This document shows positions 1 to 16,800 of a DNA stretch of 64,000 nucleotides, one piece after another. The notes below the pieces were generated by a model. The model saw nothing but the letters and a program-made list of their open reading frames with translations. It did no database searches and had not been told where the DNA came from. This DNA comes from Escherichia coli (GTDB lineage Bacteria; Pseudomonadota; Gammaproteobacteria; Enterobacterales; Enterobacteriaceae), in NCBI RefSeq assembly GCF_044324875.1, contig NZ_CP172185.1; one strand, 5' to 3'. Both the position numbers and the translations under genes were made by a program. Numbering within the stretch: the first letter of the stretch is position 1; each line of letters opens with the position of its first letter.

Positions 1-1
1 A

Positions 2-181
2 CTTGAATTATATTCAGTAGATGCGGAACGGGTGTCTCTGAGAGTCCGGGTGGAAGACGATATTTCTGTTCGCGTATTTATCAATAAACCCAGCGAAGAA
101 GCCTGGGGCGATGTTGTTATGCACATGAAAAAGCACATCGCTAATCACCTGAAAAAGCGAGCGCCATCAGCACTTCGTTAA
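2..181 (+). CDS. C-terminal fragment of an unidentified prophage gene (5' part outside window)
   Basis: Frame open from window edge, ...LRVRVEDDISVRVFINKPSEEAWGDVVMHMKKHIANHLKKRAPSALR, stop TAA at 179-181; convergent with Q. Confidence 0.4.
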   Translation, partial: LELYSVDAERVSLRVRVEDDISVRVFINKPSEEAWGDVVMHMKKHIANHLKKRAPSALR

Positions 182-247
182 GCAGAGCTGGAGAGTCGGG
201 GCATAAATTTTTTATGCCCCGGCGAAGCAGCAGACAAGCGAAGCGCG

Positions 248-1303
248 TCAGGATATGGGCTGGGTGTCTAACAGTGCGTAAGGGTTAAAACGGATCACCT
301 CTTCGCCCAGCCAGTCGTTGACGTGTTTCATTGCTTCCATGACGGGCATCAGTTCGTTAATGGCAAACACACGGGCTGCCTTCTCCACATCCCCGAATGA
401 CCCCTTCTCACCCGGCATGGCCCCCATCAGCTGCGGCGGTACACGGTGCACGGACAGCACATCATCACGCGATGCAGCCTTGACGTTCATGAACTCATCC
501 TTTGCGGTGATTTGCTGAAACGGCAAAATCTGTACGCCATCCTTACCACCTCCCGCCGCGTGGATGAGCAGATTTTTAAACGCCCCGCCACCACGCGCGC
601 TTTGCAGTGTTTCCCGCAGTTTTTCCATGCTTTCACGGTCAACCTGCGCCGCACCGATGTAGACAATACAGCCCGCGTGTGAGCCGTTATCGTAGTAGAG
701 CTTGCGGAAGATATCGGCGGAATGTGACAGGCTGGCAGACAGCAGGCCGCCCAGGTAATCCGGCATCCCGTAAATCTCCTGGTTGATATCAGGATTCATC
801 AGGTGGCATATCGTCCCCTCACGAAAGCGGTACTCTTCCTGTCCTTCCTGTATATACCACCATGATTTCATATCGCTGCCACGTCGCATGTATTTCGCCA
901 GCGCCCGGCGCAGGGCCAGCGGTTCGCCAAGCATGTTGCGCCGCAGCTCAAGACAGGCATTACCGAACACAAACCAGTCCATCGCCACCCCGGCGAACTC
1001 CTGGCGGGACAGCAGAGGATGTGGAATATAGCAGCCCAGCAGCACATTACGTTTGAAGCTGAGCGCCGACTGGTGCCAGGACGTCTGGCGGGCAGCCCGT
1101 GCCAGTCCGTACCAGTCAACGGGCGTTTCAAACCACCGCCCGTTGTCGGCGCAGTACATGCTGTCCAGCAGGTCGGCCCCTGACAGCCGGTAAGGTCCTT
1201 CAAACGTGAAGGCACTCAGTGTCGGGTCGCTTCGCAGGGAATCCGCAAGGCTGCCCTGCGCTGCGCGGGCGTTCGTACGTCGTTGTTTATTTTTTCTGCT
1301 CAT
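248..1303 (-). CDS. Q: Phage portal (capsid vertex) protein, P2 gpQ-like
   Basis: 351-aa ORF; size, position (divergent from capsid operon, adjacent to terminase) and sequence character as recalled for P2 Q. Confidence 0.8.
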   Translation of the reverse strand: MSRKNKQRRTNARAAQGSLADSLRSDPTLSAFTFEGPYRLSGADLLDSMYCADNGRWFETPVDWYGLARAARQTSWHQSALSFKRNVLLGCYIPHPLLSRQEFAGVAMDWFVFGNACLELRRNMLGEPLALRRALAKYMRRGSDMKSWWYIQEGQEEYRFREGTICHLMNPDINQEIYGMPDYLGGLLSASLSHSADIFRKLYYDNGSHAGCIVYIGAAQVDRESMEKLRETLQSARGGGAFKNLLIHAAGGGKDGVQILPFQQITAKDEFMNVKAASRDDVLSVHRVPPQLMGAMPGEKGSFGDVEKAARVFAINELMPVMEAMKHVNDWLGEEVIRFNPYALLDTQPIS

Positions 1304-3054
1304 CAGAACTCCGTAACACTGAAGGGGGCGGCATCATGTTCACCGCCGACAGGTTCGTTGATAACGGCCAGCATGGTGGCCCATGCAAGATCGCCATGGC
1401 TTACGCCTCTTGCGCGATCTGTTTCGTAGGTGATAAATCCGGCCTGCGTTTTTGTTTTGCGTACCGCGTTAAAGGCGCTCACCAGTTCGCGCTCGCTGCG
1501 GTCGTACTCCCACCGCCCGGCGCGCATGAGCTGCAGCATCTTCAGAACCAGCGTGCGCTTTGATGACAGGGTGAAGGTGTAGGGAATGGCTGCCGGAAAA
1601 AAGCGCTTCACAATCTGATACACCGCATCCCCGTGACCGCCGGTTACGTCAATACCGATATGCTCAACGTTATAGCGAAAGGTGAACTCTTCAATCACCT
1701 TCGCCTGCGCCTCAAACTCCAGCCCCTGCACCCGCCGCGTCTCCACGGTGCGAAAACGCCCGCCCGGTACGGCTGGCGGCACCACCACGACAACCGCCCC
1801 GCTGTCACCGTTCCCGCTACTGCCGTTGGCGTCGTACCCAATCCACACAGGGCGGTTCCCCATCGGACGCGGTGCAAACGGCTTCCAGTCCGGCCACTCG
1901 TCGTATCCGTCAACACCGCAGCCAATCAGGATATTCAGGTTAAATGCCGATTCCCCTTCGCGAGCAAATTCACACATGTAGAGATTGCGGAACTCGTCTT
2001 CAGTGTTATTGCGCCGGATTTTGTCAATGTTGGTTAACGTCCATCCCTGACTGACCACATCTTCCAGCGTCACAATTTGCCGCCAGATATAGTCAGGACA
2101 GATAAGGCCGTTATGAAGCGCATTCCAGCTCACATCAAAATGCTGACGTTTATGAGTACGAAGCCCTTCATTCCAGTGATCGCCGTTCCAGTATGCATAC
2201 GCCTCATGTGTTTCACTTGATGGCGTGGAAAAATAGGTACACCGCAAACCATCCAGCGTTGCCATAGCAGCAGCCACCTTGCGCAGCTCTGCGAAACGCC
2301 CCGTCCAGAAAAACTCATCAAAATACAGATTCCCTGTGTACGCTTGCGCGGTGGCCGCAGAAGTGCCGAGAAAATGCAGCTCTGCACCGTTGGAGAGGAT
2401 GACTTTATCGCCCCCTTTCAGTTCCACATCAACTTCAGATGCAGCCTTCTGAATAATGCTTTTAAACTGGAGCGCCTGACGACGAGACGCAGACAAAAAA
2501 ATCTGGTTACGCTGGTAAGGTTGTGCCACATCGTCACGCAGCGCCATCAGCAGCGCTTCCTGCGCAAAATACCAGGTCGCCCCAATCTGGCGGGATTTCA
2601 GGATCATCCTGTCAGTAATTCCGGCACGCTCACAGGCACCGATAGCATCAAGCCATTTGCGCTGGTGTCCGGCCAGCCTGTCGGTAATTTTTTCCCGCAG
2701 CGCCGCGATCTGTTCCGGCGTGAAATGATTTTTGCGTTTTTTCGCCCGGCCTTTCTTTCCTGTTGCCGTCTCATCCGGCAGACCGTCATGCAGCTTTTTA
2801 AGCTGACGGGTCAGCAAATCAATTTCCTTAAAGTCCCCGCCTGTTTTATTCTGTTTTTCCGTGAGCTGAATGAGTCGCGCATCCATGGACTGCGTGACAC
2901 GCTGAACCGGGGGCGTCTCATCCCACTGGTCGCGTTTTTTCCACGAATGGATCGTGTTCTGGTTGATACCCATAAGGCGGGAAATTTCCGCAACAGGGTA
3001 ACCCTGCCAGTACAGCTGGCGTGCCCGCTGGCGAACAAATGTATCCTGAATCAT
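1303..3054 (-). CDS. P: Terminase large (ATPase) subunit, P2 gpP-like
   Basis: 583-aa ORF immediately upstream of Q on the same strand, 1-nt start/stop overlap; terminase-like size and context. Confidence 0.8.
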   Translation of the reverse strand: MIQDTFVRQRARQLYWQGYPVAEISRLMGINQNTIHSWKKRDQWDETPPVQRVTQSMDARLIQLTEKQNKTGGDFKEIDLLTRQLKKLHDGLPDETATGKKGRAKKRKNHFTPEQIAALREKITDRLAGHQRKWLDAIGACERAGITDRMILKSRQIGATWYFAQEALLMALRDDVAQPYQRNQIFLSASRRQALQFKSIIQKAASEVDVELKGGDKVILSNGAELHFLGTSAATAQAYTGNLYFDEFFWTGRFAELRKVAAAMATLDGLRCTYFSTPSSETHEAYAYWNGDHWNEGLRTHKRQHFDVSWNALHNGLICPDYIWRQIVTLEDVVSQGWTLTNIDKIRRNNTEDEFRNLYMCEFAREGESAFNLNILIGCGVDGYDEWPDWKPFAPRPMGNRPVWIGYDANGSSGNGDSGAVVVVVPPAVPGGRFRTVETRRVQGLEFEAQAKVIEEFTFRYNVEHIGIDVTGGHGDAVYQIVKRFFPAAIPYTFTLSSKRTLVLKMLQLMRAGRWEYDRSERELVSAFNAVRKTKTQAGFITYETDRARGVSHGDLAWATMLAVINEPVGGEHDAAPFSVTEF

Positions 3055-13394: not shown

Positions 13395-13841
13395 TTATCT
13401 GCCAGCATTGCGGATGATACCCGAAAGCATATCAGACACCGACGGCATCATTCGCTCCCGCAAATCCTCATCACAGCGTTCCATACTGACAGTGAACTCA
13501 ATTTTTTTGGCCTTACCGTGGCGGTCAAGTTCGCTTCGCGTTGTGCGGACAGCCGTTATCACATACATGCCGTATATCTGCCCCACACCGTCAATCAGCG
13601 GCCATGGGCGGCCAGTGTAAGCCTGCGTCGTTAAAAGGCTGAGGGAAACCTCACCGCCGGTAATTTCGGGATAAAGCACACCGGACAACGTGATCTGGTC
13701 GTCACCCGCCCCGATATACTGCCAGCTGGCCGAACGATTGATGCGTTCATTTTTAACGTGGCGCCAGGTTTTATTATGTTGCAGTTGTTGATGAGGCAGC
13801 GTACGCAACTCAAAAACAAACATGCCGTAAATCATCATCAT
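13395..13841 (-). CDS. U: Tail protein, P2 gpU-like
   Basis: 148-aa ORF downstream of tape measure on minus strand. Confidence 0.75.
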   Translation of the reverse strand: MMMIYGMFVFELRTLPHQQLQHNKTWRHVKNERINRSASWQYIGAGDDQITLSGVLYPEITGGEVSLSLLTTQAYTGRPWPLIDGVGQIYGMYVITAVRTTRSELDRHGKAKKIEFTVSMERCDEDLRERMMPSVSDMLSGIIRNAGR

Positions 13842-13852
13842 GCGAGGTACTC

Positions 13853-16800
13853 CTAATCTCTGTCACGGAAACTACCGACTGTCTGGCGGATACGGCGTTC
13901 CATTTCCGCACGGACGGCATCACCCACCATTTTTGCCAGTTCGCGCGGGTTTTGCGTGTGAACATCATGCAGGTGAATATGCAGTTCGCCAGTTAATCCC
14001 CATGGTGCCGGATCACTCTGACGCGGTCGGGGCGATGCGGGGGATATGGGCTGGCGCACAGCCTCAACCACCGGACGGGATGTTGCCGTTACGACGGGTG
14101 TCATTACCGGCGCAATATTGCCGGACACTACCGGTTTAATTACCGGGGAGAGCGTCGGTATAACATCGCCAGCCATAACCGGTTTGATCGCTGGCGAAAT
14201 AACCGGAGCAACAGACTCAGCCATGACGGAACTGACAGGCTGAGGCGCTCTCACTATGCCAGCATCGATAACCAGCATGAGCTCGCGTACTGCCTCAAGG
14301 ACAGGACGGGATATTGCCGCCATCACTGGTGTCATTAGCGGGGAGAACGTCGGCATGACATCGTGAGTCATAACCGGTTTGATCACCGGCGAAACCACCG
14401 GCGTAATATTACCGGACAGTACCGGACGGACGACCGGAGGAATAACCGGCACATTATTCACGGACACCACCGGCTTCACGACCGGCGACACGTTCGCCGT
14501 GGTGGATATCAGCGGCGAAACACTGACAGGCGGTGGCGCTGGCAGCGGTGGCAACGAAGGCACACTGACCGACGGCACCTGCGGCAGTCTGACAGGTGGC
14601 TCACTGACACTACCCGGTAACAGGGAAGCTGCGCGGTTAAAGCGTTCCTCCTTCCACTCACCACGAACGGCCAGCGCTTCCGGCAGGTTTTTAAAGATAA
14701 TATCGCCGGGACCAGTGCGTTTTTTCGCCTGTTTCGCCTCATCCAGCAGGCCACCGGTGTTATCGACGATTTTATTCAGGCGACGCATGGTGCCGGTATT
14801 CTCCCCCGTCAGCGGAGCAGTTGCTGCAGGTGCAGGTACTGGCGGCTTTTTGTCTTTGTCATTTTGCGGCGGATTAATGACATTAACATCCGCCAGGAGC
14901 ATGGCGGCTTTCTCGTTCAGCAGCTCCTTCTGCTTCAGCTCTTCCGCCTTTTTCCGGGCGCGCTCAACCGCCGACGGAATCAGCCCGAGTTTTTCCAGCA
15001 CCCGGGTTAATGAGTCAATCAGCAGCGTAACCGGACCGGTCACCAGATTGCTGATAAACTCCCCGACCTTCTGCCCGAACGTCCGCCCGGCTTCCGTGCA
15101 CTTGTCCAGCTCATCCTTTGTTGTGCTTACCGGCGCGAACAAATCCACGAACCACTGCCACACACGCCCGATTGTCTGCCCGACATACTCAAACAATGGT
15201 CCCAGTGGTGCCACAGCCTCGCGCAGTGGCGTAAGCCCCTGCCACAGGCCGGACAAGAACCCGCCCACGACAGCCTTCAGCTGGTCCCAGTGCCGCCAGA
15301 TAAGCACTGCCGCACCGACCAGTGTCGCCACCACAAGGCCCACCGGACTTAACAGAAAACCCAGCGCCCCGCCAAGTGCGCCCACCGCACCACTCACCAT
15401 CCCCCACAGTGCGGGCAGACCTGACAGTCTGAGCGCCAGTATTCCGATACCGCGCCCCAGTGAAATCAGTGCGCCGCCAGGTGAAGTGAACGCAGCCAGC
15501 AGACCACCACGCAGCGCGCCAAGTCCCGCCTGCACACCACGAAGCCGCCCCGCAACTACGCCCAGCAGTGCAGCAAACCGTCCGGCACCGGAGGTGATAC
15601 CGACAAACAGCACGCGCCAGCCACCGATACCGCCCAGCGGACCACCGAGTACGCCGCGCAGCTGCGTCAGTAACGGCAGCGCACGACCGAGGCCGGATGT
15701 GCCGGTCAGCAGGGCAAACCCAAGACGCAGTTTTGCCAGCGGCCCCATCAACACACCAGTGGCAAGTGACAGCGCCCCCATGGCCGCAACCGCAGCCAGC
15801 AGTGCACCACCGGCAATCAGCAGTTGTTTTGTCAGTTCAGGGTGCGCCTGGGCCAGCGCGGTGACTTTCGCAATAACCCGGGTGAACGACTGCGTGACAG
15901 AACGCAGCGGCCCGTCAACGAGGTCAGCGACACGGATACGCAGCCCTTCCCATGCGCTGTTCAGTGATTTCAGGTCGCCGTCCAGGTTGTCCGCCATGAT
16001 TCTGGCGTTTTCTTCCAGTTCGCCGTTCGCTGCCTGAATCTCACGCGTCAGGCGCGGCAGGTTTTTTTCGCCTGCCTGTTCAACCAGGCTCATCAGGGAG
16101 ACATACGCCTCCTGCCCGGCAATATCTGAAAAGAACGAGACTTTTGCCGCGTTACCGTATTTACGGGTGGCCTGATACAGCTCATACAGGATATCTTCCA
16201 TCGGGCGCATGTTCCCGTAAGCATCCTGCGTTTCCACGCCCAGCTGTTTCAGCGCCTTTGCTGCCGCTTTAGGCGGGTTCACAAGGCGGGACAGACTGGA
16301 GCGCAGCGCCGTACCAGCATCACTGCCACGTATCCCCATCGACCCAAGCAACCCGGTCATGGCTGCGGTCTGTTCAAGAGACAGACCGAGTGAGGCGGCG
16401 ACCGGTCCCGTATATTTCATCGTCTCACCAAGCCCGCGCAGGTCGGTATTGGTGCGGGTGAACGTTGCGGCCAGCGTGTCACCCACGCGGTTCATCTGGT
16501 CGGCAGACAACCCGAACTGCGTAAGGATATTTGAGCTGATATCGGCCGTCTGACCGAGGTCCATGCCGCTGGCCGTTGCCAGATTCAGCACGCCGGGAAG
16601 AGCCGCCTGTATCGCCTGCGGCGTGAACCCCGCCATGGCAAGGAACGCCTGACCGCTGGCAGCATCACCTGCGGTAAACTGCGTTTCGGAGCCGAGTTTA
16701 AGCGCCTGTTCGCGCAGCGCCTTAAACTGCGGACTGTTTTTGTCAATACGGGTCAGCGCCTGGACGCGCGACATCTCCTTACCAAAACTGACCGCCGGTT

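Follow-up and report, generated by a model that had tools for sequence, protein, structure and literature searches.

A P2-family cos homolog upstream of a P88-like Escherichia coli prophage portal gene, and a palindromic element beside that gene at which the DNA of a sister lineage ends

The window analyzed here, 64,000 nucleotides of Escherichia coli DNA, opens inside a P88-like prophage (Xuanwuvirus, Peduoviridae), a short distance left of its portal gene. Profile and alignment comparisons show that a non-coding block upstream of the window is homologous to the cos sites of the P2 family. Within the window, next to the portal gene, is a palindromic element (Element B, positions 185–255) that is a genuine DNA-end site in a sister lineage, as shown by two adapter-ligated ends. 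The reading that we prefer, with slightly better than even confidence, is that the upstream block is the prophage's own packaging site, that Element B is a separate hairpin or a copy of the other lineage's cos, and that an accessory gene lies between the two.

Base 1 of the window corresponds to position 15001 of an identical prophage locus in E. coli TUM1886 (L001), where the prophage adjoins dmsABC. Positions 1–1400 match prophages of several complete E. coli genomes at 100% identity, and they match P88 along with other Xuanwuvirus records at ∼79%. The gene order in L001 is integrase, Cox, small early genes, replication endonuclease A, small ORFs, a “hypothetical protein” (14471–15181), and the portal. 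In the window, the portal gene (gpQ homolog) occupies 248–1303 on the minus strand, its stop codon (TCA on the plus strand, 248–250) forming the last part of Element B, and the gene for a P88-type large terminase subunit (TerL, gpP homolog) occupies 1303–3054 on the same strand. This TerL is 86% identical to that of P88, 77% and 72% to those of a Salmonella and an Edwardsiella relative, 66% to that of Klebsiella phage 3LV2017, 56% to that of SEN4, 46% to that of P2, and 36% to that of the sister lineage (L007 type). The label “P2-like,” given in an original prediction made from the letters of the window, is thus right at the family level (46% identity to P2, 86% to P88), and the portal gene annotated at 248–1303 is indeed the neighbor of the palindrome, as that prediction had it. 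Elsewhere in L001, an intact 133-aa ORF (13786–14187) that is annotated as a truncated pseudogene looks like a chimera. The matches of its product are to a common phage early protein (phrog_60, 3323, 660) in the N-terminal third and to phrog_13916 (labelled “DNA ligase”) in the C-terminal half, and SPI-7-type ICEs also have the first 140 nt of the ORF.

P2 and P4 share a cos core of 55 bp, with 19-nt 5′ cohesive ends GGCGAGGCGGGGAAAGCAC (Ziermann and Calendar 1990, as relayed in PMC9122126 and PMC3931495). In both genomes the layout consists of TGCATTAAAA, a palindrome (CCGCCC-N8-GGGCGG), the 19-nt overhang, and GCGCGC. We built a four-region profile HMM only from the cos regions of P2, P4, SEN4, and Klebsiella 3LV2017, and over its full length it matches the Salmonella locus L013 (6e-13), P88 (1.7e-9), L001 at 14236–14374 (5e-9), and L014 (1.6e-6). 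The original prediction had noted a loose resemblance of the sequence at 221–230, beside the palindrome, to the start of the P2 cos overhang, but the comparison points elsewhere: the profile has no match at Element B or in the rest of the window, and its match in L001 is 627–765 nt upstream of base 1. The matching segment holds TGCA(C/T) repeats, a palindrome, and GCGCGC, and it lies in a ∼200-bp conserved non-coding block (L001:14200–14420, 580–800 nt left of base 1) that is apparently unannotated in all records seen.

Alignment of P2, P4, SEN4, Klebsiella 3LV2017, and the P88-type loci brings out the same shared features, namely the TGCA(C/T) repeats, the palindrome, a G-rich core, and GCGCG flanks. 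In the upstream block, three TGCACAA repeats at ∼10-nt spacing are followed by GTGCGTGCAC, and an A/T palindrome co-varies between loci (GAAAAAGGCCTTTTTC versus CAAAAACGCGTTTTTG). The P88-type cos-like core reads GCGCGCA-GGTGACGGGGGAACAG-CCCGCG, which is 2 nt shorter than the canonical 19-nt overhang, and the core GCGCGCAGGTGACGGGGGA is unchanged across E. coli, Salmonella, and Edwardsiella. The homologous block of Klebsiella 3LV2017 contains a canonical P2-family cos (GCGCGCA-GGCGAGGCGGGGGAGCAAG-CGCGCGC). The sticky end of SEN4, GGCGAGGCGGGGGAACGAG, has been published (PMC5261728); the SEN4 record opens at this sequence and has the same TGCAC repeats to its left.

Nearly all P88-type loci have the upstream block, which occurs in 1,148 E. 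coli genomes, and it tracks the type of terminase, being present with TerL proteins 66–86% identical to that of the window prophage and absent from the 36%-identical L007 type. The Salmonella locus L013 (TerL 77%) keeps the block and lacks the right half of Element B. The distance from block to Element B ranges from ∼190 to 765 nt because cargo has been inserted between them. From homology and phylogenetic bracketing, we infer that the upstream block is the cos of the window prophage itself, favored because of the homology, the co-variation with the terminase, and the retention of the block in Salmonella L013, where the tail of Element B is missing. If so, the accessory gene sits between cos and portal.

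Scans of IMG/VR for adapter junctions at the upstream block and at the P88-type palindrome gave no junction for P88-type phages at either. The record of P88_4B11 (L258/L259, LR595891.1) is linearized inside the block (...GAACGAATTTT|TGCCCTTCC...), and immediately to the right of the cos-like core it lacks 6 nt (CCCGCG). We considered the opening of this record as a physical end and rejected it, as no bases are missing or duplicated there. Incidentally, at the end of one IMG/VR contig (L129, reverse strand) the end of an insertion sequence abuts CAGGTGACGGGGGAAC, indicating that, in one isolate, the insertion sequence went in exactly at the left edge of the cos-like core.

Turning to the window itself, the palindrome is CGGGGCATAAA-TTT-TTTATGCCCCG at 197–221, with 11-bp arms (197–207 and 211–221) that are 100% complementary and a 3-nt spacer; when folded as RNA, the stem extends to 195–223. 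This is the object that had been described as cggggcata-N7-tatgccccg at 197–222; its arms are longer and its loop shorter than in that description, and it ends one base earlier, at 221. The sequence GGCGAAGCAG that was reported beside it is present at 221–230 and has G221 in common with the palindrome. The segment 182–247 has a predicted folding energy of −30.7 kcal/mol (z = −5.5), and none of 200 shuffles was as stable, so there is more structure here than chance would produce.

Element B as a whole is a ∼70-bp non-coding sequence composed of GAGCTGGAGAGT, the palindrome, GCGAAGCAGCAGACAAGCGAAGCGCG, and TCAG, with flanks that vary from phage to phage on both sides. It is 95–100% identical in ∼1,170–1,182 of 5,426 complete E. 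coli genomes and in 16 phage records, and in most of these carriers the adjacent portal gene is only ∼79% identical. To its left, the neighbors differ among phages; to its right is the portal gene, an Ogr/Delta gene, or a 67-nt spacer and a 174-aa ORF.

The palindrome appears to have been longer. An ancestral form can be traced over 187–231, where the outer arms GCTG (187–190) and CAGC (228–231) still pair. Two IMG/VR variants and the copy in the ICE L010 have 21-bp arms (GCTGCTTCGCCGGGGCATAAA / TTTATGCCCCGGCGAAGCAGC), and the arms of the Edwardsiella copy, 14 bp long, differ in sequence but include GCGAGGCAG too, whereas in the common E. coli form the outer arms are reduced to GCTG/CAGC. Judged from these copies, GGCGAAGCAG forms the right-hand outer arm of a longer palindrome that has partly decayed, and since it is a palindrome arm in the variants, in the ICE copy, and in Edwardsiella, it is not the start of an overhang. 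The stem of the L007-type copy contains one compensatory change (T:A to A:T), and in Edwardsiella, Salmonella, Klebsiella, and SI7 this position is taken by hairpins of unrelated sequence.

Beyond the stem is a conserved right half (222–247) with a direct repeat, GCGAAGC, at 222–228 and 238–244, and GCGCG at 243–247. We regard it as a candidate recognition sequence. It is kept in Edwardsiella (GCAGCAGACAAGCGTAGCGCG), diverged in the ICEs, and absent from Salmonella L013, Klebsiella 3LV2017, and SI7. The palindrome at 197–221 does provide the GC-rich stem-loop of an intrinsic terminator. However, the 3′ flank of the stem is without a U-tract on the plus strand (GCGAAGCAG) as well as on the minus strand (ACTCTCCAG), so the hairpin is not a canonical intrinsic terminator, and a terminator scan does not report it. 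An Rfam search of positions 1–600 returned only sub-threshold matches (gyrA RNA at 22 bits versus a 45-bit cut-off), and literature searches for the sequence of Element B, the termini of Xuanwuvirus/P88, and the cos of K139/HP1 produced nothing usable.

Diverged copies of Element B (79–84% identical) also occur in E. coli ICEs of the SPI-7 type (L009:7001–7066 and L010:7001–7050). The ICE copy has small phage-like ORFs on one side and, on the other, the STY4528-family ICE replication gene, upstream of which it lies, and it adjoins other patches that are homologous to the P88 early region. Its stem pairs on the plus strand only via G-U.

The evidence that Element B can be a DNA end comes from the L007-type lineage, which has an Ogr/Delta–portal–terminase arrangement, is closest to Salmonella phage SI7 and Vibrio K139, and carries Element B but no P2-type cos. 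Two IMG/VR contigs (L104 and L273), from sister metagenomes of one project, have Illumina adapters joined directly to phage sequence. L104 starts with adapter and GAAGCAGCAG (GAAGCAGCAGACAAGCG...), followed by ogr, portal, and terminase; L273 holds the arm with the integrase and the early genes and closes with ...TTCTTTTTG (...GGGGCAAAAATTCTTTTTG) and adapter. The ends of L273 and L104 map with 99%–100% identity to the L007-type prophage L272, at 13740 and 13748, respectively. Expressed in window positions, these ends are at 216|217 and 223|224, a 7-nt stagger, and the sequence between them, CCCCGGC (217–223), is the predicted cohesive-end sequence, missing from both of the adapter-ligated contigs.

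Adapter read-through that is kept at the end of a contig means that no reads spanned the site, and thus that the DNA was linear there. End repair removes 3′ overhangs from both ends. Because CCCCGGC was lost from both of the repaired ends, the 7-nt overhang was probably 3′-protruding, a polarity that follows from the library chemistry. The two cuts are asymmetric about the palindrome, which argues against a fold-back artifact. There is a single observation per end, one contig each, from sister samples of one project. A metagenome scan with a loose pattern returned 120 adapter-bearing contigs, all of them unrelated. From the cut rightwards to the portal stop, the window sequence is identical to that of the sister lineage.

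No termini can be read from the SI7 record, which is circularly permuted. HP1, a member of the Peduoviridae with short cohesive ends, has its cos next to attP, and this cos is unrelated to Element B. Directly left of Element B, at L007:6960–6990, is what is left of the 3′ end of the accessory gene that is cut by the window edge (AAAGCGCCAGCCGCATTCCGTTAA versus AAAGCGAGCGCCATCAGCACTTCGTTAA in the window). The presence of this remnant suggests that the L007-type left arm was derived from a P88-type phage carrying that gene.

The accessory gene enters the window in frame from the left edge on the plus strand and contributes its last 59 codons and a TAA (179–181) to positions 1–181, just as the original prediction placed it. 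In the identical prophage, the full gene is L001:14678–15181 (167 aa). The RefSeq form is longer (236 aa, WP_223942718.1, L001:14471–15181), but the profile phrog_5091, which has no function assigned to it, covers residues 69–235 of this form (E=3.4e-52, profile positions 1–163 of 164), and nearly all homologs in a set of 5.8 billion proteins have 167 aa. Just before the internal ATG at L001:14678 stands AAGAGGA, a ribosome-binding site, so that the 167-aa gene appears to have a ribosome-binding site of its own, and this ATG is likely its true start. Comparison with P88 shows that the first 69 codons of the 236-aa form are a small ORF of the P88 backbone (L006:2867–2995). The accessory gene was inserted in the backbone between AAATTATCTGA and GCAGAGCTGGAGAG, and this insertion fused the two reading frames. 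The 236-aa annotation is therefore probably an artifactual in-frame fusion of a 42-aa backbone ORF and the 167-aa accessory gene.

In prophages of Edwardsiella tarda and Salmonella and in other E. coli prophages, too, the 167-aa gene immediately precedes the portal, and in P88-like prophages it is invariably the portal's neighbor. A TTGCAG-17-CAnAAT motif stands 5′ of it in all four loci compared (identified by eye, and below the scan threshold). The protein has no Pfam, PADLOC, or NCBIfam match, thus no known defense domain by these scans; a Pfam scan of its distant relatives and a tblastn search against phage records likewise gave no match. The gene had been called a member of an unknown family, and it does belong to one without an assigned function, phrog_5091. 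Antisense to the gene's end (window 150–174, minus strand), a hairpin with a T-run (AGTGCTGATGGCGCT + CGCTTTTTCA) forms a weak terminator-like structure, which leftward transcription would reach after Element B; it is at chance level in the terminator scan.

P2-like phages have a cos-proximal accessory hotspot (Rousset et al. 2022, PMC9122126), and the region left of the portal is this hotspot, in agreement with the original prediction, which named the region left of Q, with cos and the old/tin locus, as a hot spot for anti-phage genes. The cut gene is a widespread, uncharacterized resident of this hotspot, not a recognizable defense system. In other P88-type phages, the 174-aa ORF between Element B and the portal is also a phrog_5091 match (E=6.8e-67). 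This paralog is at L004:3139–3663, L005:3139–3663, and L008:7139–7663, 14 nt from the portal stop, and its carriers include ST131 and O111 prophages. It corresponds to WP_000236489, given as “hypothetical” in published P2-hotspot gene arrangements (Rousset et al. 2022, PMC9122126). With the 167-aa and 174-aa paralogs on opposite sides of Element B, the phrog_5091 family occupies either flank.

It is important to weigh the preferred reading against other explanations of the same features. A possible, though doubtful, one is that Element B is the cos cleavage site of the window phage too, and that the upstream block is a terminase-binding region, an accessory region, or a relic. What keeps this alive is the conservation of Element B (95%–100% in P88-type prophages with a portal only ∼79% identical), the exact lineage breakpoint (in the hybrid lineage the junction is exactly at the right border of Element B, as if arms join at a shared cos), and the shorter upstream core, with its 2-nt deletion relative to the canonical cos. 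Moreover, Element B is near-identical to the site that is physically cut in the sister lineage, and in E. coli it co-occurs almost 1:1 with the upstream block (1,182 versus 1,148 genomes). The preferred reading has points against it as well: a mere hairpin would not have to match or exceed the conservation of the upstream block, as Element B does, and next to the core that is 2 nt short, P88_4B11 has lost 6 nt. However, terminases that are 46%–66% identical (P2, SEN4, Klebsiella 3LV2017) use or retain a canonical cos in the homologous block, the core GCGCGCAGGTGACGGGGGA does not change among three genera, both Salmonella L013 and Klebsiella 3LV2017 do without the right half of Element B, and the block and the element are separated by a variable distance with cargo between. 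A reading of the L104 junction as proof that Element B is a P2-like cos of the window phage was rejected in view of the Klebsiella/SEN4 alignment and the profile search. The reading originally given, of a P2-type cos with a 19-nt 5′ overhang starting at GGCGAAGCAG (221), is very improbable. Element B is between the accessory region and the portal, as a P2-family cos should be, its palindrome extends over the putative first base in keeping with the P2/P4 CCGCCC-N8-GGGCGG layout, and GCGCG follows ∼20 nt further on. Against this, positions 221–239 match the P2 overhang, GGCG(A/T)GGCGGGG(A/G)A..., at 10 of 19 positions by eye, a search for that overhang at three or fewer mismatches did not find it, and the sequence left of 197 is coding and without TGCA(C/T) repeats, unlike the P2 layout. 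In the sister lineage, the mapped DNA stops at 216 and resumes at 224, where this reading would call for 221 and 239; the two ends are 7 nt apart rather than 19, and both are without the 7 nt. The resemblance of GGCGAAGCAG to the start of the P2 overhang is thus superficial, a matter of a palindrome arm, and there is a far better P2-family homolog upstream. What survives of the idea that the palindrome region is a cos is the DNA-end site in the sister lineage, which is not of the P2 type and is recognized for different reasons. Two findings had been named as overturning the idea, a cos at another place and an ordinary P2 gene upstream. The leftward sequence does contain a P2-type cos, outside the window, but its gene next to the portal is not an ordinary gene of P2.

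It is also rather unlikely, and less probable than a second cleavage site of the window phage, that Element B acts in transcription or as RNA and in no other way (as a bidirectional stop or a 3′-end-protecting hairpin between convergent operons, analogous in position to tQ of P2) and that the adapter ends are artifacts of the palindrome. In favor of this, the terminator tQ of P2 forms a hairpin between cos and Q, each relative examined has a strong hairpin, differing in sequence, beside the portal or ogr stop, the ICE stem keeps its pairing only through G-U on the plus strand, and a metagenome contig (L052) simply breaks in the loop. Yet no U-tract follows the stem on either strand, and the tail at 222–247, which is outside of the hairpin, is as conserved as the stem. 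Furthermore, the two junctions, each from an assembly of its own, are separated by 7 nt and asymmetric about the center of the palindrome, and L104 and L273 each continue into the expected arm of the genome.

Under the preferred reading, with the upstream block as the prophage's own packaging site, the 167-aa phrog_5091 gene would have been inserted in the P88 backbone between packaging site and portal gene, and the phage's own terminase would package from the upstream P2-family cos block. Element B would be a hairpin between the convergent early/accessory (plus strand) and portal–terminase (minus strand) transcription units. It may also be a shared cos-type module at which lineages exchange arms, and one that the terminase of the sister lineage could cleave. 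In that lineage, with its SI7/K139-like terminase and no P2-type cos, virion DNA would end at Element B with the cohesive end CCCCGGC. A more specific proposal, which we put forward only tentatively, is that P88-type prophages, which about a fifth of complete E. coli genomes contain, carry two packaging-type sites for two families of terminase, their own P2-family cos and, a few hundred bases away, a near-perfect copy of a 7-nt cos of the SI7/K139-like type. If this is true, the second site could let the other lineage's terminase cut or package P88-type DNA, or could act as a decoy. Element B could then be a joint for swapping early and late genome arms between lineages, with accessory genes such as the phrog_5091 pair inserting on either side of it, and the diverged ICE copy hints that the module spreads beyond phages.

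Cos sites set which DNA a phage or its satellites can package, and in P2-like phages they mark a hotspot for the exchange of defense genes. Locating the P2-type cos of P88-like prophages would put the cargo described here at the portal side of the end of the virion chromosome. Element B, a terminus of the sister lineage that is kept almost unchanged in more than 1,100 E. coli genomes, offers a handle on the swapping of genome arms in the Peduoviridae and on whether phages carry each other's packaging sites.

The arrangement can be compared with several known systems. Like the defense systems of the P2 old/tin hotspot (PMC9122126), the 167-aa gene is between gpA and gpQ and beside cos; unlike them, it is on the portal side of the P2-type cos rather than on the old/tin side, and it is without a known defense domain (PADLOC, Pfam, NCBIfam). 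Element B resembles the P2/P4 cos core in its location between an accessory hotspot and the portal, in having a palindrome directly left of the cut and GCGCG to the right, and in being a conserved island between elements that differ on both sides. It departs from that core in lacking significant profile similarity and, as mapped in the sister lineage, in its stagger of 7 nt and in the indication of 3′ rather than 5′ overhangs. With tQ, the rho-independent terminator of the P–Q operon between cos and Q in P2, Element B shares a stable hairpin between convergent units, a few to ∼26 nt beyond the portal stop, but tQ has a U-tract and Element B does not, and Element B has a conserved 26-nt tail and a DNA-end site in the sister lineage. 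The HK97 type reportedly comprises, in the scheme of the PhageTerm paper, cos sites with 3′-protruding ends. Such sites have been described for siphoviruses. Element B of the sister lineage is like them in its fixed ends, its short stagger, and the loss of the overhang from both ends by repair, and it differs in belonging to the Peduoviridae, with an overhang polarity that is read here from library chemistry.
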